DNA of 64,000 nucleotides from assembly GCA_049643885.1 (NCBI GenBank), contig JBARQV010000010.1, positions 758 to 64,757 of the forward strand, written 5' to 3'. Within the stretch, counting starts at the first letter, position 1. The number at the start of each line of letters is the position of its first letter. The notes under the pieces are model-generated. The model was given only the letters and a program-made list of their open reading frames with translations, did not search any database and was not told where the DNA came from. This document shows, piece after piece, positions 3,994 to 63,363 of the stretch. Both the position numbers and the translations under genes were made by a program. This DNA is from Candidatus Omnitrophota bacterium. GTDB taxonomy: Bacteria > Omnitrophota > Gorgyraeia > Tantalellales > Tantalellaceae.

Positions 3994-4067
3994 TGGCTGG
4001 GATGCCTGGACTCGAACCAGGAACAAATGTTCCAGAGACATTCGTGTTACCATTACACCACATCCCA
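3994..4067 (-). tRNA. tRNA-Gln (anticodon CUG)
   Basis: 74-nt reverse-strand tRNA tgggatg...catcccagcca. U1-A72 acceptor typical of tRNA-Gln, anticodon loop ctCTGga, T-arm cctgg-ttcgagt-ccagg. Immediately upstream of glnS. Confidence 0.85.
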
Positions 4068-14050: not shown

Positions 14051-15625
14051 TCACTTCGCGTACTCTATTGACCTGGTCTCGCGAATAACAACGACCTTGA
14101 TCTGGCCCGGGTACTGCATGCTGCTCTCGATCTTCTTTTTTATTTCCTGGGCCATCATCGCCGCTTTGGCATCGTCTATCTTTTCCGGCTGGACGATGAT
14201 GCGTATTTCCCGGCCGGCCTGGATAGCGAAGGTCTTTTCTACTCCTTCGAATTCATTGGCGATGCCCTCAAGGTTTTCCAACCTCTTGATATATGACTCA
14301 AGGGTCTCCCTTCTGGCCCCGGGGCGCCCGGCGCTAATGGCATCCGCTGCCTGCAACAGGACCGCCAGAAGAGTTTTGGGTTCGATGTCGCCGTGGTGGG
14401 CTTCAATAGCATGAGCTACTATTTCAGGTTCCCCGTACTTCCTTGCCAGGTCTGCCCCGATCTTGGTATGTGTTCCTTCTACTTCATGTGAAACGGCTTT
14501 CCCAATATCATGCAAAGCGCCGATGCGCTTGGCCAGGTTGACATCGAGCCGGAGCTCCCCAGCCATGGTCGCCATAAGGTAAGCTGTCTCTTTTGAATGC
14601 TGTAGAACGTTCTGCCCATAGCTGGTGCGGAACTTGAGCCTCCCCAGGAGTTTCACGATCTCCGAATGCACACCATGGATACCGAGAACCAGAAGTATGT
14701 TCTCGCCTTCCTGTTTCACGGTCGCTTCCATTTCCTTTTTTACCTTTTCCACGACTTCTTCAATGCGGCCAGGGTGTATCCGTCCGTCCTCCAGAAGCCT
14801 TTCCAGGGACATTCTCGCGATCTCCCGGCGAAACCTGTCGAACCCCGAAATGATGACCGCCTCGGGTGTATCGTCAATGATGATATCCACTCCGGTTGCC
14901 ATCTCCAGGGCTCGGATGTTCCTTCCTTCCCGGCCTATGATCCTCCCTTTCATCTCTTCCGAGGGCAGGTTTACCACGCTGACCGTGGTATCGACAGTGT
15001 GGTCGACAGCACACTTTTGTATTGCCAAGCCGACTATCTTCCTGGCCTCCCTATCGGCCTTTTCCCTGGTCTCTTCCTGGATCCTCTTGACGGTCATTGC
15101 CGCCTCGCTCTTGGCTTCGTTTTCCATCTTCTGGATGAGCATTTTTTTGGCCTGCTCCTTGCTCATGCCGGAAATCTCCTGGAGCCTGGTCTTCTCTTCC
15201 TGGTACAACTTTTCTAACTCTTCTTTTTTCCGATGGATCTCATCGTTTTTTTGTTTTACATGGCTTTCTGTTTTTCTAAGGTCCTTCTCTTTCTGATCTA
15301 TCAGTTCGACCTTGCGGTCAAGGTTTTCCTCCCTCTGGAGAAGGCGCTTTTCCATTGCCGAAAGTTCCTTCCTTCTCTCTCTCGTCTCCTCCTCGAATTC
15401 GGCCCTCATCTTAAGCAGAAAATCCTTGGCTTCAAGGGCAGATTCCCTTTTCCTGCGCTCGGCTTCGACTTTGGACTTAGTGATGATGTTTTTGGCCTTA
15501 TCTTCGGCGTGCTTTACTTTCATCTTGGCCGTGTACTTCCTCAATACATAGCCAAGAATAAAGAAAAAAGCACTGCCAAGAAGAGCAAAACCTATATAAC
15601 TAACAGTCACGTTACCTGTGTTCAT
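14051..15625 (-). CDS. rny: Ribonuclease Y
   Basis: N-terminal TM helix, long coiled-coil, KH domain (GRIIGREGRNIRALE) and HD domain (HSKETAYL...HDIGK). CCTCC RBS before ATG 15625 (MNTGNVT); the ORF-track start at 15724 is an overcall. Confidence 0.92.
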   Translation of the reverse strand: MNTGNVTVSYIGFALLGSAFFFILGYVLRKYTAKMKVKHAEDKAKNIITKSKVEAERRKRESALEAKDFLLKMRAEFEEETRERRKELSAMEKRLLQREENLDRKVELIDQKEKDLRKTESHVKQKNDEIHRKKEELEKLYQEEKTRLQEISGMSKEQAKKMLIQKMENEAKSEAAMTVKRIQEETREKADREARKIVGLAIQKCAVDHTVDTTVSVVNLPSEEMKGRIIGREGRNIRALEMATGVDIIIDDTPEAVIISGFDRFRREIARMSLERLLEDGRIHPGRIEEVVEKVKKEMEATVKQEGENILLVLGIHGVHSEIVKLLGRLKFRTSYGQNVLQHSKETAYLMATMAGELRLDVNLAKRIGALHDIGKAVSHEVEGTHTKIGADLARKYGEPEIVAHAIEAHHGDIEPKTLLAVLLQAADAISAGRPGARRETLESYIKRLENLEGIANEFEGVEKTFAIQAGREIRIIVQPEKIDDAKAAMMAQEIKKKIESSMQYPGQIKVVVIRETRSIEYAK

Positions 15626-15683
15626 AATATCCTCCTTATGAATGATTGATGCAAATAAGACGTAGTTGTTAGGTTTGCGGGAG

Positions 15684-16259
15684 TCAGGCCGAGATGACCC
15701 GGTGAACAGGCCGGTCGTGAGCATCGACAGGAAGCGCGTCTACGATCTGAAAGCTGAATGCTAGACCTATCGTTTTTGAAGAAGACAGTTCTTCGTTCGC
15801 GAGGAATCTGTCAAAATATCCTTTTCCTCTTCCCAGTCTCATATTTTGCCTATCAAACGCTATTCCAGGGACCACGATGAGATCTATCTCCTTCAGCGAC
15901 ACTGCCTTGGCAGGGCCATTCTCCGGTTCATGTATCCCGAAGGGCCCTTCCACCAGCTCATCTATCGAAGTAAGCTCAGATGCAATTATCGACTGGCTTA
16001 CGGTATTTATGCACGGCACAGCGAGTTTTTTGCCTCTCTCCAGCATTTTTCTAATGAAATAATGGGTGTCGACCTCCGTCGGAAGCGACACATAAGCCAT
16101 CACAACCCGGCTTTCTTTAAACTCCAGGCTGGAAAGAAGCTCATCCTGCACCTTGCGGCTCCTATCCTTCCTTAAAGAAGGATCCTGTTCCCGCAATTGC
16201 CTGATTAACTCCTTTCTGATTTCTTCTTTTGACCGTATAATATTCAATTTTAAGCTCAT
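15684..16259 (-). CDS. 5-formyltetrahydrofolate cyclo-ligase
   Basis: 191 aa with MAYVSLPTEVDT...VPGIAFDRQNMRLGRGKGYFDRFL MTHFS family motifs. Confidence 0.8.
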   Translation of the reverse strand: MSLKLNIIRSKEEIRKELIRQLREQDPSLRKDRSRKVQDELLSSLEFKESRVVMAYVSLPTEVDTHYFIRKMLERGKKLAVPCINTVSQSIIASELTSIDELVEGPFGIHEPENGPAKAVSLKEIDLIVVPGIAFDRQNMRLGRGKGYFDRFLANEELSSSKTIGLAFSFQIVDALPVDAHDRPVHRVISA

Positions 16260-16311
16260 ATATTATACAATATTCTCCTATATATGCCTAATTTTTTATT
16301 TTTTGGTCCTT

Positions 16312-16530
16312 TTATACCGTTTCTACCCGCTCTATTTCGGGTATTTCCTGTTTCAGGGCCTGTTCCACGACGTTTTTTAGCGTCATCTGGCTCATTGGAC
16401 ATCCGGCGCAAGCCCCTCGCAGGGCTACCTTCACAACATTGCCCTCTACCGAGACAAGTTCTATATCTCCCCCGTCCCGCTGCAGGAGCGGACGGATCTT
16501 ATCTATAGCATCACGTACTCTTTCTTCCAT
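16312..16530 (-). CDS. NifU-like (Nfu) Fe-S cluster scaffold domain protein
   Basis: MEERVRDAIDKIRPLLQRDGGDIELVSVEGNVVKVALRGACAGCPMSQMTL with the CxxC of the NifU C-terminal domain. AAGGGG RBS before ATG 16530. Confidence 0.8.
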   Translation of the reverse strand: MEERVRDAIDKIRPLLQRDGGDIELVSVEGNVVKVALRGACAGCPMSQMTLKNVVEQALKQEIPEIERVETV

Positions 16531-16603
16531 GATTTCCCCTTTCGTTATATTGTTATGCAAGAAGGGACGATATAATACGATACATTGACAAAAAAGTCAA
16601 TGA

Positions 16604-16996
16604 TCATGGTTGTTTCTTTGTAACGCGGGGCGATAACCCGGGATTCTTCCTTATATACAGACCCACCCCGGCATAGGTGATAATGGTAGCGGCCAAAGCC
16701 CCGGCAAAACTTGCGACCGGGGCACCTGAAAGGGCATAAAGCGCAAAAATGGTCCCGGTAAAAACTGCTAAAGGGATGCCGTATAAAAGGGTATACAGCT
16801 TGAGCATCATCGAACTTTCCATTGCTATCTCAACGGGGTCTCCTACACTGAGCCCCTGCGCCTTTTCCCCGCTTACGCTTATCCTCCTGGGCCGGCCGGC
16901 TCCGCAAATGCCGCATTTGTGGCACTCCTCGTGGGGCTTTACTTCTATCACTATGGTACCGCTTCTGGCCTCGACCACTTTCCCCCGTTCTTTCAT
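16604..16996 (-). CDS. RseC/MucC-family protein (SoxR-reducing system / sigma-E regulator type)
   Basis: N-terminal cysteine cluster (CHKCGICGAG) followed by two TM helices, the RseC-like architecture. Confidence 0.55.
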   Translation of the reverse strand: MKERGKVVEARSGTIVIEVKPHEECHKCGICGAGRPRRISVSGEKAQGLSVGDPVEIAMESSMMLKLYTLLYGIPLAVFTGTIFALYALSGAPVASFAGALAATIITYAGVGLYIRKNPGLSPRVTKKQP

Positions 16997-18000
16997 ATCC
17001 TCATCTCCTTGATCTTCTCTTTAGGCAAGGGCGGTACTGCCAGTGTGCTCTTGTCCTTATCCTCGACCCAGTATTCAACCGGGACTTTTTCTTCGCCCTT
17101 GAATTTTGAATGGCTCACAACAAGGGAAGCGGCGGTCTTTACATGGTTTTCGCTCTTTTTGCCCCGGAGTAGGGCATAAGGCCCGGGCTTATCCTTGAGA
17201 CGCAGGATCATGTCCCTGTTCTCTTTAAGGCCGGCGATACCGTTATTGTCCTTTTCGTCCCTCCCTACCACGACCTTGGTCTCCCGGTCCATGCGGAAAT
17301 GCCTTCCGTATTTCAAAAGGTCGATATTCTTAATAGCAAGGCTATCGGTATCTATAAGATCTTTCACCTTTTTGGCGAATATCGGGTCCGCCAAAAGACA
17401 TCCCCCTGCGGGGGGAAAGAATTTCTTTATCCCGTACTTCCTGGCCAGTTCGAACTGTCTTTTTCTTGACCGTCCTTCTATGTCCAGAAGTCTCTCCCTG
17501 TCCACGACGCCTTCTTTTTCGGGGATAGTCTCGTCCAGGAGCTTGGCTGAAAGCGGCCGGAGCAGATACCCGTCAAGAGATGAGCTTTTCCTGATGATGT
17601 TAAGGGCGTCCCTCCTCTGGGACATCGGACGCTCGCCAAGCACTTCCCCGGTAACGACAAAATCGGCACCCTCTTCTTTCATCACCTCCCAGGCCTTCCG
17701 CAACATGAATATCTTACAGTCGATACACGGGTTCATGTTGGAACCATACCCGTGTTTAGGCGATTTCAGGATATTAAGGAATTCTTTTGATATATCTACG
17801 ATCTTTACCGGGATACCTGCTTCGTTCGAAGCGATGTGGACATTATGGGAAAAATCACGCACACTGGTGGAAGCAACGGACATGACGAAGGCCACGCCCT
17901 GCACTTCTATCCCCTGCTCCTGGACCAATTTGGCAGCCAGCAGGCTGTCCAGCCCTCCTGAAATAAGAGCTACCGCTTTCCTTTTAACTTTTCCAGCCAT
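16993..18000 (-). CDS. ThiI-like PP-loop ATPase (adenine nucleotide alpha-hydrolase superfamily, probable tRNA thiolation enzyme) without a THUMP domain
   Basis: SGGLDS PP-loop at residues 14-19, CIDCK motif and a TGEVLGERPMSQ...LLRPL segment resembling the ThiI catalytic domain. Confidence 0.55.
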   Translation of the reverse strand: MAGKVKRKAVALISGGLDSLLAAKLVQEQGIEVQGVAFVMSVASTSVRDFSHNVHIASNEAGIPVKIVDISKEFLNILKSPKHGYGSNMNPCIDCKIFMLRKAWEVMKEEGADFVVTGEVLGERPMSQRRDALNIIRKSSSLDGYLLRPLSAKLLDETIPEKEGVVDRERLLDIEGRSRKRQFELARKYGIKKFFPPAGGCLLADPIFAKKVKDLIDTDSLAIKNIDLLKYGRHFRMDRETKVVVGRDEKDNNGIAGLKENRDMILRLKDKPGPYALLRGKKSENHVKTAASLVVSHSKFKGEEKVPVEYWVEDKDKSTLAVPPLPKEKIKEMRI

Positions 18001-19277
18001 TCCTTTATTTTCTTTTCGTACCCCATCTCTGTAGGCATGTAATAAGTCTTCTTTCTCCGCATATAATCCTGTTTGACGAAGTGATCTTCGAAAGAATGGG
18101 CATATTTATAATCCTGGCCGTGTCCGAGTTTTTCGGCCCCGGGATAATTGGCGTCCTTAAGATCATCCGGCACTTCCTGCGTCCTCTGGGTCTCAATATC
18201 TTTTATGGCCTTGTGGATCGCCATGTACGAGGCGTTGCTTTTCGGCGCGCAGGCAACGTAAATAGTGGCCTGCGCCAGTGGTATCTTCGCTTCCGGTAAA
18301 CCGACAAAATCAGCTACCTGCATGGCCGCGTTCGCCACCACCAGGGCCTGTGGATCGGCGTTGCCTACATCTTCTGCGGCACATATCACCAGCCGCCTGG
18401 CAATGAACCTCGGGTCTTCTCCCGCCACGACCATCTTAGCCAGCCAGTAAATCGCAGCGTCCGGATCGGATCCCCTCATGCTTTTGATGTACGCGCTTGC
18501 CGCATCGTAATGGGCGTCACCGTCGCGGTCGTAAACAATCGCTTTTTTCTGTATGGACTCTTCCGCCTCCTTCAGGCCGATCTTAACCACCCCTTTCTTA
18601 TCCGCGGTACTGGTAAGAAAGGCGATCTCCAGAGCGCCTAAAGCTTTCCTGGCATCACCGTCGGATATGGCGGCCAGGTGATCAAGAGCCTCCTTGTCCA
18701 CGTTGATATCCTTTCCCTTCAGACCCCGCTCCTTGTCTTCAAGCGCTTTCTGTAAAATGGCAAGAACATCTTTCTTTTCAAGGGCTTTGAATTCAAATAT
18801 CTGACTCCTTGAAAGCAAGGCGGAATTCACCGTAAAGAAAGGGTTTTCCGTGGTCGTGCCCATAAGTATCACATTCCCTTCCTCCACATCCGGCATAAGC
18901 ACGTCCTGCTGCGCCTTGTTAAACCTGTGGATCTCGTCCAGCAAAAGTATGGTTTTCTGCCCGTTAAGGGCCCTCTGCTTCTTCGCGGCGTCTATTATCC
19001 GGCGAATCTCTTTTACGTTGCTGGAAACCGCGTTCTGTCTTACGAACCGGGCCCCGGTCTTGTTTGAAATGATCATTGCCAAGGCGGTCTTCCCCGTACC
19101 CGGAGGCCCGTAAAATATTACCGAGCTAATGCGGTCAGCCTCTATCGCGCGCCGCAGGAGCTTGCCCTCGCCGACGATGTGTTCCTGCCCGTAGAAGTCC
19201 TCAAGCCGATGGGGACACATCCTCACCGGTAACGGCCCCGCCTTATCCTTCTTATTTTCCCTTTCAAAAAGGTCCAT
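17970..19277 (-). CDS. rarA: Replication-associated recombination protein A (AAA+ ATPase)
   Basis: GPPGTGKTALAMII Walker A, LLLDEIHRFNKAQQD Walker B/sensor, MgsA/RarA C-terminal domain. Confidence 0.9.
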   Translation of the reverse strand: MDLFERENKKDKAGPLPVRMCPHRLEDFYGQEHIVGEGKLLRRAIEADRISSVIFYGPPGTGKTALAMIISNKTGARFVRQNAVSSNVKEIRRIIDAAKKQRALNGQKTILLLDEIHRFNKAQQDVLMPDVEEGNVILMGTTTENPFFTVNSALLSRSQIFEFKALEKKDVLAILQKALEDKERGLKGKDINVDKEALDHLAAISDGDARKALGALEIAFLTSTADKKGVVKIGLKEAEESIQKKAIVYDRDGDAHYDAASAYIKSMRGSDPDAAIYWLAKMVVAGEDPRFIARRLVICAAEDVGNADPQALVVANAAMQVADFVGLPEAKIPLAQATIYVACAPKSNASYMAIHKAIKDIETQRTQEVPDDLKDANYPGAEKLGHGQDYKYAHSFEDHFVKQDYMRRKKTYYMPTEMGYEKKIKEWLEKLKGKR

Positions 19278-19304
19278 TATCCACTATCCATTATCCGCCA
19301 TTAG

Positions 19305-19493
19305 AAAATAAAAGGCCGGTGGTTAGCCGGCCTTAAATGCCCCGTCGGGCCGTAAACAATTGGAGAATTGTGACCTGGTCTTCCCAGGTGGGTGCCCTCC
19401 TGACAATCCCGAAGGAATGCCAGAGTTAAGCTCCCGATTTAGTGGTGTTGGTCCAATTCTCATTCGCTGTGCACGCACCCGACAGGAAACTCT
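19305..19493 (-). ncRNA. Candidate structured sRNA (about 190 nt, 6S-RNA-like architecture; identity unconfirmed)
   Basis: Reverse-strand sigma70-like promoter (TTGAAG at 19524-19529, 18-nt spacer, TATAAT at 19500-19505) immediately after the pheT stop. Terminal helix ccugucggg/cccgacggg, internal 12-bp helix gagaauuggacc/ggucacaauucuc separated by a 16/13-nt internal loop. Ends in an intrinsic terminator ggccggcuaaccaccggcc followed by UUUUAUUUU. Confidence 0.4.
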
Positions 19494-19548
19494 GTATTTA
19501 TTATAGCACTTTAGAAAGTTCTACTTCAATTAAATTTGTGTTAATTTT

Positions 19549-21588
19549 TTAACGGAAAGAGACGCCGAGTTTTCTGGAAAGGGCTTCTTTGATCCCTGAA
19601 TGGGCTTGTTCCACTTCATCTTCCTTCAAGGTGCGGGTATCGAGACCGTATTCTATGCTGAAAGTAAGGCTCTTTTTGTCCGGGGGGACCTGCTTCCCCT
19701 CGTATACATCGACAAGTTTTACCCGGCGTATGATATCCTTGCCTTCCCGGACGATCACCCCGGATATCTCGCCCGCGGTCAGGGGCTTGTCGCAAAGAAT
19801 AGAAATGTCTCTTGAAGAGGCGGGAAAACGCGTTATGGGTCTATATACATCTTCGAGAACGGCCTTTTCATAAAAACCAGCCAGCTCTATCTGACATACA
19901 TAAACTTTCTGGTCTATGCCGTATTTTTTAAGGATGTCGTGCCCGACCTGCCCCAGTAAGCCGGATGGTCTTTTTCCCCCTGCTATTTTCATCGACGCGC
20001 ACAGGTCAAAACCTTCTACTACTTCCGGCGCGAATTCAGGCTCAAGCCCGGTTCCCCGAAAAAGCGCTTCAGCCTTACCTTTGAGGTCGTAAAAATCGCT
20101 GCCCCTTTCTCCCTCTTTCCATCCTTCCCTGGCAAGGCCGGTTATCCCCATACATAGCGCGGGTTCCTCGCGGAATTCCTTGCCGGCGCGCGCATAGATC
20201 TTACCTATTTCGTAAAGCCGGAGGTCCTTATTCTTGCGGTTAAGGTTATATGAAACCATCCTGAGCATTCCGTCCAGGAGCTGCGGGCTCAATATCTTCT
20301 GTTCTTCAGAAAGAGGATTACTTAATTGAACTGTCTTCTCCTTTGTGATCGAAGAGAAAATATCCGCGGCCGGTTCGCTTATGAGGCTGTAAGTCATTAT
20401 TTCGCTTAATCCCAGCGACGGGAGGATCCCCCTTATCCGTTCTTCAACGAGCCTGGCCTTGCCCTTTCTCTCTGTCTGGGCAAGGAGTTTTGTTGTCGTC
20501 TCCGGTATATTATCGTAGCCGTATATCCTTGCTGCTTCTTCGACAAGGTCGATCTCGCGCGTCAGATCTTCCCGGAAACTCGGGACTTTGACCGCCAGCA
20601 CCTGTGCTGCTTCTTTGTCGATGATCATGCCCAGTCTTGAGAATATGCGCTTTACTTCATCTTCCCTCAGCTTTATGCCCAGAAGCCGGCCGGCTTTTTC
20701 AACATCGAACTTTATCACTCTTCCTTCCGCCGGGAGCTTTCCGCAATCATAAAACTCGCAGATCTTCCCGCCGGTCTCTTTCTTTATGATAAGACTCGCC
20801 CGGTCAGAGGCTCCGGCTATCATCCCTTTGTCCACTCCCCGCTCGAAACGGTAGCTGGATTCGCTGCCTAAGCCTAGCTTTCTCGCTGTCTGCCTTACCG
20901 AGATCGGATCGAAGTAGGCGCTTTCAAGAAGAATATTCTTAGTCGCGCCGCTCACCTCGGTATTTACTCCTCCCATTATGCCGGCTATTGCTACCGGCCG
21001 CTCGCTGTCAGCGATGACCAGCATGCCGGGCTCTAGCTTTCTTTCGATACCGTCGATAGTAACTATTTTTTCGCCCTTGACCGCTTCGCGGACTATGATC
21101 TTTCCACCCTTCAGTTTGTCCAGGTCAAAAGCGTGCAAAGGCTGGCCGAGTTCCATCAGGCAGTAATTCGTGATATCCACCACGTTGTTTACCATCCTGA
21201 GCCCCACCGAGGAGAGCCTTTCCTTTATACATTCATCCGACTCGGCAACTTTCACTCCGGTTATGACTCTTGCGGTGTACCGCGGACAAAGTTTGGGTGC
21301 TTTTATCACGCATTCGACCTTCGACCCTTTTTCGCGTTTATTCTCAGGGATCGCAAGCTCCGGCAGGCAAAGATCCTTATCGAAGACCGTCGACACCTCC
21401 CGGGCCAGGCCGATAATGGAGAGACAATCCGGTCGGTTGGACGTGATCTCAAGGTCCATGACCCTGTCGCTCCCGACCTCTGGCATCACTTCCACTTCGG
21501 AACCGGACATAGTAAGGGCGTGAGCGACTTCTTCGGGAGTCGCTTTCACATCAACATATTCTTTCAACCATTTATAACTTAACTTCAT
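19549..21588 (-). CDS. pheT: Phenylalanyl-tRNA synthetase beta subunit
   Basis: 679 aa with B3/4 and B5 domains and a C-terminal anticodon-binding-like domain. Directly downstream of pheS. Confidence 0.9.
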   Translation of the reverse strand: MKLSYKWLKEYVDVKATPEEVAHALTMSGSEVEVMPEVGSDRVMDLEITSNRPDCLSIIGLAREVSTVFDKDLCLPELAIPENKREKGSKVECVIKAPKLCPRYTARVITGVKVAESDECIKERLSSVGLRMVNNVVDITNYCLMELGQPLHAFDLDKLKGGKIIVREAVKGEKIVTIDGIERKLEPGMLVIADSERPVAIAGIMGGVNTEVSGATKNILLESAYFDPISVRQTARKLGLGSESSYRFERGVDKGMIAGASDRASLIIKKETGGKICEFYDCGKLPAEGRVIKFDVEKAGRLLGIKLREDEVKRIFSRLGMIIDKEAAQVLAVKVPSFREDLTREIDLVEEAARIYGYDNIPETTTKLLAQTERKGKARLVEERIRGILPSLGLSEIMTYSLISEPAADIFSSITKEKTVQLSNPLSEEQKILSPQLLDGMLRMVSYNLNRKNKDLRLYEIGKIYARAGKEFREEPALCMGITGLAREGWKEGERGSDFYDLKGKAEALFRGTGLEPEFAPEVVEGFDLCASMKIAGGKRPSGLLGQVGHDILKKYGIDQKVYVCQIELAGFYEKAVLEDVYRPITRFPASSRDISILCDKPLTAGEISGVIVREGKDIIRRVKLVDVYEGKQVPPDKKSLTFSIEYGLDTRTLKEDEVEQAHSGIKEALSRKLGVSFR

Positions 21589-21591
21589 CTC

Positions 21592-22620
21592 TTACTTAAA
21601 CTGCTCCAGAAACCTCATGTCATTCTCGTAAAATAAGCGGATATCCTCGATGCCGTAAAGAAGCATGGCTACTCTCTCCACTCCCATCCCGAAAGCGTAC
21701 CCGGTGTACTCCTCGGGGTCATATTTTACCGCTTCGAAAACTTTTGGATCGACCATTCCCGCACCCAGGATCTCAAGCCAGCCGTTCCCTTTGCACACGC
21801 GGCACCCCTTACCCCCGCAGATTATGCAGGATATGTCGACCTCGGCGCTCGGTTCGGTGAAAGGAAAGAAATGCGGGCGGAAACGCATCTTTATGTTTTT
21901 TCCGAACATGCTCCTGCAAAAAAGCGAAAGCACCCCCTTGAGATCGGAAAACCTGACCCCCTTGTCGACCATGAGGCCTTCTACCTGGTGGAACATAAAA
22001 GAATGGGAAGCGTCTACGGCATCGGGGCGGTACACCCTGCCCGGCATAATGGCCTGTATAGGAGGTTTTTGCACCTGCATCACGTGTATCTGAACATTCG
22101 ACGTGTGGCTGCGCAAAAGATACGGGCTTTCTATGTAAAAAGTGTCGAACGCATCGCGCGAAGGATGGTCAAGAGGTATATTCAGTGCTTCGAAATTATA
22201 AAATTCTGTCTCGATCTCCGGCCCCTCCTCTATGCAGAACCCGAGTGAGACAAAAATCTCGTTTATCCTGTGCATGGTCTTGGTTATGGGATGAGTGGTC
22301 CCTGTCCCTATATATACTCCCGGAAGGGTGACGTCAAGTTCGCGGGTCTTCTCCTTGATATTCTCTTCTTCCAGTTTTATTTTCGCCTCTTCTATCTTTT
22401 CGCTGAACTTGTTCTTAAGGCTATTGGCCCTCTTACCGACCTCTTTCTTTTGCTCGGCCGAAAGCCCGGAAACAGCCCTGAGGATACCGGTAAGCTCTCC
22501 TTTCCTGCCGAGATATTTCACTCTTATGTTTTCTGCCTGCTGGGCGTCTTTACAGGAGGAAAGTTCCCCGGTAAATTCTTTTTCTATCGTCGCGAGTTTT
22601 TTCAAAACATCCATGGTCAT
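21592..22620 (-). CDS. pheS: Phenylalanyl-tRNA synthetase alpha subunit
   Basis: Class II motifs (HPSRDAFDTFY, FRPHFFPFTEPSAEVD, GAGMVDP...GFAFGMGVERVAML). Confidence 0.93.
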   Translation of the reverse strand: MTMDVLKKLATIEKEFTGELSSCKDAQQAENIRVKYLGRKGELTGILRAVSGLSAEQKKEVGKRANSLKNKFSEKIEEAKIKLEEENIKEKTRELDVTLPGVYIGTGTTHPITKTMHRINEIFVSLGFCIEEGPEIETEFYNFEALNIPLDHPSRDAFDTFYIESPYLLRSHTSNVQIHVMQVQKPPIQAIMPGRVYRPDAVDASHSFMFHQVEGLMVDKGVRFSDLKGVLSLFCRSMFGKNIKMRFRPHFFPFTEPSAEVDISCIICGGKGCRVCKGNGWLEILGAGMVDPKVFEAVKYDPEEYTGYAFGMGVERVAMLLYGIEDIRLFYENDMRFLEQFK

Positions 22621-27604: not shown

Positions 27605-27681
27605 TGGTGGGCGATACTGGGATCGAACCAGTGACCTCCACGATGTCAACGTGGCGCTCTAACCAGCTGAGCTAACCGCCC
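27605..27681 (-). tRNA. tRNA-Val (anticodon GAC)
   Basis: 77-nt reverse-strand tRNA gggcggttagctcagctggttagagcgccacgttGACatcgtgg... with CCA end. Confidence 0.85.
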
Positions 27682-27768
27682 ACTTTTTTGTCCTTCGTCG
27701 GTCGTATATCAAAGAGTAACCTTAAATACATTCCCCTGGATGTCATCCAAGGGCTCGAATTTGTTTAG

Positions 27769-27856
27769 TGGTGGGCGAGGAGGGACTTGAACCCTCACAG
27801 CTTATTCAGCCGAAGGATTTTAAGTCCTTTGCGTCTGCCAGTTCCGCCACTCGCCC
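27769..27856 (-). tRNA. tRNA-Leu (anticodon UAA)
   Basis: 88-nt class II tRNA with anticodon loop ctTAAaa, long variable arm and CCA end. Confidence 0.85.
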
Positions 27857-27926
27857 ATTTTATCCAATAATACCCATCCTCTTCCTATAAGGGAAGGGGC
27901 ACAGCCCCGATTTATCGGGGCGTTAG

Positions 27927-28000
27927 TGGAGGCGCGGACCGGATTCGCACCGGTGTACGCGGTTTTGCAGACCGCTGCCTATCTTCTCGGCCACCGCGCC
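27927..28000 (-). tRNA. tRNA-Cys (anticodon GCA)
   Basis: 74-nt tRNA with acceptor ggcgcgg/ccgcgcc, anticodon loop ctGCAaa and CCA end. Confidence 0.8.
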
Positions 28001-35310: not shown

Positions 35311-35388
35311 TGGCGTCCCCACGGGGATTCGAACCCCGGTCGTCAGAATGAAAATCTGATGTCCTAGGCCAGACTAGACGATGGGGAC
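35311..35388 (-). tRNA. tRNA-Glu (anticodon UUC)
   Basis: 78-nt reverse-strand tRNA, near-identical in body to the tRNA-Glu(CUC) at 566-643. Anticodon loop ttTTCat, CCA end. Confidence 0.85.
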
Positions 35389-62509: not shown

Positions 62510-62587
62510 GGGCGCGTAGCTCAGCTGGTTTAGAGCGCTACCCTTACAAGGTAGATGTCACAGGTTCGAACCCTGTCGCGCCCACCA
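62510..62587 (+). tRNA. tRNA-Val (anticodon UAC)
   Basis: 78-nt tRNA with acceptor gggcgcg/cgcgccc, anticodon loop ctTACaa, T-arm acagg-ttcgaac-cctgt and CCA end. Confidence 0.85.
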
Positions 62588-63272: not shown

Positions 63273-63309
63273 GGGTGAAGCAGAATGGCGGGGCGGACGG
63301 GGCTCGAAC
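63273..63309. repeat. Right arm of 37-bp inverted repeat (tRNA-Asp 3' end plus downstream flank)
   Basis: Overlaps tRNA-Asp positions 63286-63309 and 13 nt beyond its 3' end. Confidence 0.75.
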
Positions 63310-63363
63310 CCGCGACCTTCGGATCGACAGTCCGACGTTCTAAACCAACTGAACTACCGCCCC
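63286..63363 (-). tRNA. tRNA-Asp (anticodon GUC)
   Basis: 78-nt reverse-strand tRNA ggggcggtagttcagttggtttagaacgtcggactGTCgatccga... with CCA end. Confidence 0.85.

Follow-up and report, generated by a model that had tools for sequence, protein, structure and literature searches.

The window analysed here, a 64,000-nt stretch of DNA from an uncultivated Candidatus Omnitrophota bacterium, carries on its reverse strand a gene cluster (14051-22620) in the order pheS-pheT-ssrS-rarA-ThiI/MnmA-like-RseC-NifU-5-FCL-RNase Y, in which 5-FCL denotes 5-formyltetrahydrofolate cyclo-ligase. The region considered in this analysis is flanked upstream by pheT (19549-21588; TIGR00472, 640 bits) and downstream by rarA/mgsA (17970-19277), which encodes a RarA/MgsA-type AAA ATPase with an MgsA_C domain. 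Between these genes, on the same strand and with its 3' end 57 nt upstream of rarA, lies a 157-nt RNA core (19335-19491) that is recognized by the Rfam family model RF00013 and by a lineage covariance model (R1), and is supported by its MFE fold. With high confidence, 19491-19335 is ssrS, the 6S RNA gene of this bacterium, with a holoenzyme-sequestering role assigned by homology. 6S RNA is a widespread small bacterial RNA, which mimics an open promoter and keeps RNA polymerase in reserve. It has been reported from nearly all bacteria (PMC8414754). A small RNA between pheT and rarA on the minus strand had been proposed at this site in an earlier note made from the sequence alone, and the assignments of both flanking genes bear out this location.

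The identity of the element is indicated by family models. When the whole window was scanned with Rfam at gathering thresholds, nine tRNAs and one further match were returned, the latter to RF00013 (6S/SsrS). Confined to the minus strand, this match covers all 187 model positions (1-187) with 68.0 bits, the gathering score being 46.4; its E-value is 2.7e-11 when the whole window is searched and 1.9e-13 when only the local region is. The 6S-like fold suggested in the earlier note for an sRNA of about 190 nt is thus borne out over the full model, and the search with cmscan and RF00013 proposed there is positive above the curated threshold, with other families far below theirs. In a local rescan at E <= 10, the runner-up Rfam family reached 21.7 bits against its gathering score of 51.4, and all non-6S matches at the site stayed at or below 21.7 bits against gathering scores of 37-90. 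No model for SRP RNA, RNase P RNA, riboswitches or leaders came near threshold at the site in this rescan, in agreement with the earlier remark that the segment lacks the SRP RNA motif and RNase P P4 signatures; likewise, neither Ms1 nor any other non-6S RNA gave a significant match there (Rfam, E up to 10). The lineage covariance model scores the element at 130.6 bits, which is its sole match in the window.

The predicted fold is that of a 6S RNA, with a rod-like shape comprising a closing stem, an internal helix, a central bubble and an apical arm. Nucleotides of the RNA are numbered such that nt p corresponds to window coordinate 19492 - p, and all elements lie on the reverse strand. The MFE of 19491-19335 is -65.7 kcal/mol (z -5.3), and 0/200 shuffled sequences fold as well. 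The closing stem is formed by a 5' strand at 19472-19487 (nt 5-15 and 17-20) and a 3' strand at 19340-19354 (nt 138-152), the latter bearing an invariant ACGGC motif, through the pairings 5-15/142-152 and 17-20/138-141; it includes the terminal helix CCUGUCGGG/CCCGACGGG that had been noticed previously (nt 6-14 and 143-151). The internal helix P2, or 'downstream duplex', pairs a 5' strand at 19450-19461 (nt 31-42), which is predicted to template the body of the product RNA, with a 3' strand at 19363-19375 (nt 117-129) in which A121 is bulged. This is the helix GAGAAUUGGACC/GGUCACAAUUCUC of the earlier note, recovered in the MFE fold. The 5' strand of the central bubble (19436-19449; nt 43-56, AACACCACUAAAUC) is unpaired in the MFE fold, and the 3' strand (19376-19389; nt 103-116) contains a preformed 3-bp hairpin (106-108/114-116) that can be extended to 6 bp via G117, G118 and U119. 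The apical arm (19390-19435; nt 57-102) is 46 nt long in the MFE fold, opens with three G-C pairs (G57-G59/C100-C102) and ends in a UUCG loop.

The Rfam alignment and the fold together place the true central bubble, of 14/14 nt, between P2 and the apical arm. The long hairpin with a central bubble that had been described from the sequence is therefore confirmed as a 6S rod, but its bubble was misassigned and the 46-nt apical arm was left undescribed. The asymmetric 16/13-nt internal loop to which that description referred separates the closing stem from P2 and has some of its nucleotides paired (17-20/138-141); it is ruled out as the 6S central bubble, which occupies nt 43-56 and 103-116. The apical arm is approximately 25-30 nt shorter than in the Rfam consensus, and some relatives possess a long form of 181-190 nt. 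A shortened 6S-1 RNA has been found to cycle in vitro, yet bound polymerase approximately 10-fold more weakly (PMC8876501).

The element was also compared with related genomes. With the RarA protein as query, 80 loci (L001-L080) were collected from species-representative genomes. The closest of these by RarA derives from Candidatus Makaraimicrobium thalassicum (77% identity; Candidatus Omnitrophota, PVC group), followed by loci from other Omnitrophota and then from Verrucomicrobiota and Planctomycetota MAGs. GCA_049642145.1 (JBAROO010000028.1) and three SRA-derived contigs (SRR29492073, SRR28062511 and SRR28062501) contain the pheT-rarA intergenic region in identical form. Among the first 20 loci, Rfam detected 6S at gathering score immediately ahead of rarA and in the same orientation in 11, and the lineage covariance model detected it in 17. 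This model was built from the Rfam 6S matches and the window sequence, and its closing stem, internal helix and apical stem were supplied by hand. In total, this model yields a full-length match in approximately 67 of the 80 loci, always just upstream of rarA, and the homologues are about 134 to 190 nt long and carry indels in the apical arm. In the other 13 loci, some of which have little sequence upstream of rarA, no 6S was detected near rarA by the lineage model or by Rfam at gathering threshold; the 6S genes of these genomes may be located elsewhere. The lineage model also matches the reverse complement of one homologue (L020:79-237, reverse strand; 31.3 bits), because the 6S rod is near-symmetric. 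No such reverse-strand match occurs in the window.

Compensatory base changes are found throughout the structure. In a plain MAFFT alignment of 12 sequences (A1), 15/31 predicted pairs are compensatory. RNAalifold recovered the closing and apical stems from the plain MAFFT alignment and missed the internal helix, because this helix is out of register there; the structure was therefore entered by hand and the sequences were realigned to the covariance model. In the resulting alignment of 69 sequences (A2), 85.6% of cells pair, compared with 38-52% after the 3' partners have been shifted by 1-3 columns, compensatory changes occur in 36/42 pairs, and 0/500 shuffles reach any of the observed measures. 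Given that A2 was fitted to the model and that its sequences are related, these values constitute strong support rather than a formal probability, and the covariation counts lean towards the model. Helices 1 and 2, which form the closing stem, are 85.9% and 98% paired with 11/16 compensatory pairs; helix 3 (P2) is 73% paired with all 12/12 pairs compensatory; and helices 4-7 of the apical arm are 88-98% paired with 13/14 pairs compensatory. The 6S fold is hence kept by compensatory changes across three PVC phyla, and the examination of helix conservation and covariation in relatives suggested in the earlier note has a positive outcome.

The central bubble shows the features expected of a product-RNA template. 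It is flanked by G-C pairs (A2 columns 73-75/238-240 and 49,52/259-260) in 48-67 of the 69 aligned sequences, and its modal length is 14 nt per side among 67 homologues. In the same 67 sequences, the 5' strand of the bubble lacks structure (mean MFE -0.02 kcal/mol, z 0.09), and the 3' strand folds better than shuffled sequences (mean z -2.4), with z < -2 in 33/67. The best-conserved sequence among the homologues is GAACCAACA, located at the junction of P2 and the bubble. The product-RNA start was assigned by means of the Rfam alignment and the start on E. coli 6S RNA, U44. The predicted start in the window is C45 (19447), with A46 on its 3' side; the corresponding column holds C or U in 58/67 homologues, and the next column holds A in 58/67. 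The product RNA is predicted to begin 5'-GUUGGUCC (or, as otherwise written, 5'-GUUGGUCCAAUUC... and 5'-GUUGGUCCAAUUCUC), with GG at positions 4/5, and its predicted lineage consensus is GUUGGUUC. This start, GUU.GGUC, presumably resembles that of the B. subtilis 6S-1 product RNA. Hallmarks of verified product RNAs are a purine start, an adjacent adenine and a GG dinucleotide at positions 4/5 or 5/6 (PMC8414754), and at the sequence level these features are also seen in the template and predicted product RNA of the window.

By homology with E. coli 6S RNA and B. subtilis 6S-1 RNA, the folded RNA would mimic an open promoter and fill the active-site cleft of the housekeeping RNA polymerase holoenzyme, and this sequestration would damp sigma70-dependent transcription as growth slows. 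Once nucleotides return, the polymerase would copy the 5' bubble strand and P2, starting opposite C45 (19447). The product RNA would remain paired to nt 31-45 and push off the 3' strand of P2, upon which G117-U119 could extend the 3'-bubble hairpin from 3 to 6 bp and the rearranged RNA would be let go. Constrained folds model this last step: blocking the first 6 template nucleotides leaves the folding energy practically unchanged (-65.6 versus -65.7 kcal/mol), and the hairpin grows from 3 to 6 bp by taking G117, G118 and U119 from P2.

Two modes of release have been described, through a 9-bp hairpin formed de novo in E. coli, and through a small preformed hairpin plus a collapse helix in B. 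subtilis 6S-1 (PMC8876501). The modelled hairpin extension fits these release models, and the mode predicted for the window appears to lie between them. In the constrained folds, the distal 5' bubble does not pair with the P2 3' strand into a collapse helix like that of B. subtilis. No single conserved register for the 3'-bubble hairpin was found across relatives, and a shuffle statistic was therefore used in place of pair counts. Two kinds of hairpin are observed within one phylum (A2 columns 241-265; window 19389-19368). The first is a preformed CCUGG/CCAGG-type stem, seen in the window and in its relatives L001 and L002; in the second, the 3' bubble base-pairs with the 3' strand of P2 (CUGAA.CC/GGUUCAG), as seen in L019, L046, L051, L042 and L027. 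The latter could form only after P2 opens, and the relatives that carry it look more like the E. coli type.

The RNA appears to be transcribed from a promoter of its own. The sigma70-like promoter previously described after the pheT stop (TTGAAG, an 18-nt spacer and TATAAT) is present at that place, with a -35 hexamer at 19524-19529 (10/12 matches for the promoter in a consensus scan with this spacer), and it also possesses an extended -10 element (TGcTATAAT; 19500-19508), in which TG occupies 19508-19507 and TATAAT 19505-19500. By itself, the promoter match in the window is not significant (1 site found versus 0.9 in shuffles). Among homologues, sites of at least 9/12 occur at the right distance in 17/66, compared with 4.0 +/- 1.8 in shuffles, 8/66 have TGnTATAAT no further than 26 nt from the 5' end of 6S, as against 0.09 expected, and TTGnnn recurs in relatives at the position of the -35 hexamer. 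Transcription is estimated from spacing to start at approximately 19493-19491. The -10 hexamer ends only 8 nt ahead of the Rfam 6S start, and almost no 5' trimming should therefore be needed.

At the other end of the gene, a consensus scan confirms the clean intrinsic terminator previously reported downstream of the promoter (19303-19334, reverse strand), which consists of an 8-bp stem with 6 G-C pairs, a 7-nt loop and then UUUUAUUUU. Its hairpin, AAGGCCGGCUAACCACCGGCCUU (19334-19312), stands directly behind the 6S core, and its U-tract runs to 19305. From promoter and terminator, a primary transcript of about 186-189 nt is predicted. A terminator after 6S is also present in the two closest relatives (L001 and L002), and in 19/64 homologous loci overall. 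No terminator was found between pheT and the 6S promoter (scan of 19549-19500), and pheST transcripts should therefore also enter the 6S gene. 6S RNA is thus likely supplied by two routes, namely its own promoter and read-through from pheST.

The gene neighbourhood combines features known from two other bacterial groups. In Firmicutes, rarA adjoins 6S (PMC8414754), and in Proteobacteria, ygfA adjoins 6S and is co-transcribed with it (PMC7641849, PMC4064990). The locus in the window carries both of these 6S partners: in addition to the adjacent rarA, a 5-FCL gene of the ygfA/fau family (15684-16259, reverse strand; PF01812, 155 bits) is located 1.7 kb beyond the end of rarA. Of the 80 PVC loci, 43 have 5-FCL downstream of rarA in the same orientation, often immediately, and the RNase Y gene (rny) comes next in 24; pheT is upstream of 6S in most Omnitrophota loci. 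No promoter of its own is recognizable for rarA by consensus scan; since rarA stands only 57 nt downstream of 6S without a visible promoter, we infer that it is probably expressed through read-through of the 6S terminator, as is the case for E. coli ssrS-ygfA. The order (pheST)-ssrS-rarA-...-5-FCL-rny could guide the finding of divergent PVC 6S genes that score below the Rfam threshold.

The distance between 6S and rarA is smaller still in some relatives. In at least nine of these (L019:2967-3018, L024, L042, L058, L026, L007, L054, L049 and L059), the closing stem GCGGGGAUUUU, often with additional U, ends 4-22 nt before the rarA ATG. Such a gap leaves no room for a promoter or terminator, and co-transcription is therefore the simple reading in these genomes. 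There, the closing stem with its U-run may act as a leaky terminator, with GGGGA doubling as a ribosome-binding site. Tentatively, ssrS, rarA and often 5-FCL might constitute one ancient transcription unit in the PVC group, in which 6S would be excised from the 5' end of the rarA message; in the genomes with 4-22-nt gaps, either this excision or the closing stem itself would define where the rarA mRNA begins and how accessible it is to ribosomes. If true, polymerase release from 6S at outgrowth would be coupled with the expression of a factor that rescues replication forks and with the remobilization of stored folate, and the Firmicute (rarA) and proteobacterial (ygfA) linkages could be suggested to stem from a single ancestral ssrS-rarA-ygfA locus.

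These arrangements raise the question of whether the element serves as a cis-acting 5' leader of rarA, that is, an attenuator or structured UTR, rather than as a trans-acting 6S RNA. It is always found upstream of rarA on the same strand, approaches the rarA ATG to within 4-22 nt in at least nine relatives, and is followed in the window by no visible separate rarA promoter. Nevertheless, such a leader is a very unlikely account of the element: the full-length match is to the 6S model, with cis-regulatory Rfam families all far below threshold, a dedicated terminator separates the RNA from rarA in the window and its closest relatives, and both the asymmetric bubble and the hallmarks of a product-RNA template are conserved among homologues. 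Moreover, E. coli 6S RNA is situated in the 5' part of the ssrS-ygfA mRNA yet acts in trans (PMC7641849), and the leader and 6S roles are therefore compatible.

Two further explanations were weighed. That the region is merely the pheST 3' UTR with its terminator, and its fold incidental, is extremely improbable in view of the compensatory structure in three phyla, including Verrucomicrobiota loci with another upstream gene, the Rfam 6S match and the positioned promoter enriched in relatives, even if pheST transcripts, with no terminator from the pheT stop (19549) on, must end at 19312-19305. The chance that the region instead encodes a small protein is negligible. The transcribed segment had been described as lacking an ORF, and this does not hold literally, as a 51-codon GTG ORF (19478-19323) is present in the mechanical listing; its pattern of evolution is indeed non-coding. 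The GTG start falls within a stable stem, no Shine-Dalgarno motif was noticed upstream on reading the sequence, the homologues vary between about 134 and 190 nt with apical-arm indels that are not multiples of three, and substitutions are pairwise-compensatory. The ORF was rejected as a gene because such compensatory base-pair and length changes are unlike those of coding sequence.

As a 6S RNA, the element can be compared with its characterized counterparts. It resembles E. coli 6S RNA in its full-length match to the family model, its rod with a G-C-flanked central bubble, its predicted GG at product-RNA positions 4/5 (PMC8414754), the same-strand protein gene that follows, probably by read-through as in ssrS-ygfA (PMC7641849), and the 5-formyl-THF cyclo-ligase gene in its cluster. 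In contrast, the core is 157 nt long instead of 184 nt, with a shortened apical arm; its 3'-bubble hairpin is partly preformed and reaches at most 6 bp, where E. coli forms 9 bp de novo; the gene ends in an intrinsic terminator, whereas the title of reference 95 in PMC7641849 reports Rho-dependent termination for E. coli; and the gene immediately downstream is rarA rather than ygfA.

Other likenesses are to Firmicute 6S RNAs. As in B. subtilis 6S-1 (bsrA), a small 3'-bubble hairpin already exists in the free RNA (PMC8876501), and as in both B. subtilis 6S-1 and Lactobacillales 6S, the gene is linked to rarA (PMC8414754); an own promoter and terminator are likewise shared with most Lactobacillales. 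However, rarA is upstream of 6S in Lactobacillales, and in B. subtilis it has the opposite orientation and is monocistronic (PMC8414754). In the window, 6S precedes rarA, and both are on one strand. Unlike B. subtilis 6S-1, the RNA has no obvious central-bubble collapse helix in constrained folds, and its GG dinucleotide is at product-RNA positions 4/5 rather than 5/6. Ms1 RNA of Actinobacteria is also a rod-like polymerase-binding RNA structurally related to 6S, but it binds the polymerase core and not the holoenzyme and is confined to Actinobacteria (PMC9130861).

The 6S gene in the window is ordinary, being a member of a long-known RNA family that is caught by the standard Rfam model, and its broad biological import is accordingly small; the use of the result lies in correct annotation for an uncultivated phylum. 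A literature search combining 6S RNA with Omnitrophota, Planctomycetes or Verrucomicrobia found no joint paper, with most subscription journals outside its scope. Only mildly new are the short-arm form of approximately 157 nt, the lineage consensus of the product RNA and the ssrS-rarA-(5-FCL) order across the PVC group.

Several other features of the window were noted. The region that separates the 6S terminator from rarA contains two copies of a 10-nt direct repeat, GGATAATGGA, at a distance of 14 nt (19296-19287 and 19282-19273, reverse strand), of which the second overlaps the rarA start codon; the 19273-19296 stretch also contains two short out-of-frame ATG mini-ORFs on this strand. The pheT product is 679 aa long, and its match to the bacterial PheT model begins only at position 158 of the 798-position profile. 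The gene starts 4 nt past the pheS stop, and the N-terminal domain is therefore genuinely absent rather than lost to a miscall; alignments with relatives span residues 1-679, and a length of 679 aa is also annotated on the NCBI contig. Overlapping the 3' end of rarA by 31 nt, a gene at 16993-18000 (reverse strand) encodes a PP-loop ATPase with a ThiI/MnmA-like N-terminus fused to an NFACT-R_2 RNA-binding domain, and is followed by RseC_MucC and NifU genes. According to the legend of Fig. 2 in PMC8414754, cysteine desulfurase and mnmA genes are found near Firmicute 6S-rarA loci, and the ThiI/MnmA-like gene is a possible parallel to this neighbourhood. The nine tRNA genes detected by Rfam are distributed over 569-930, 3997-4067, 27608-28000, 35314-35388, 62510-62584 and 63289-63363, with three grouped at 27608-28000 and a pair at 569-930.
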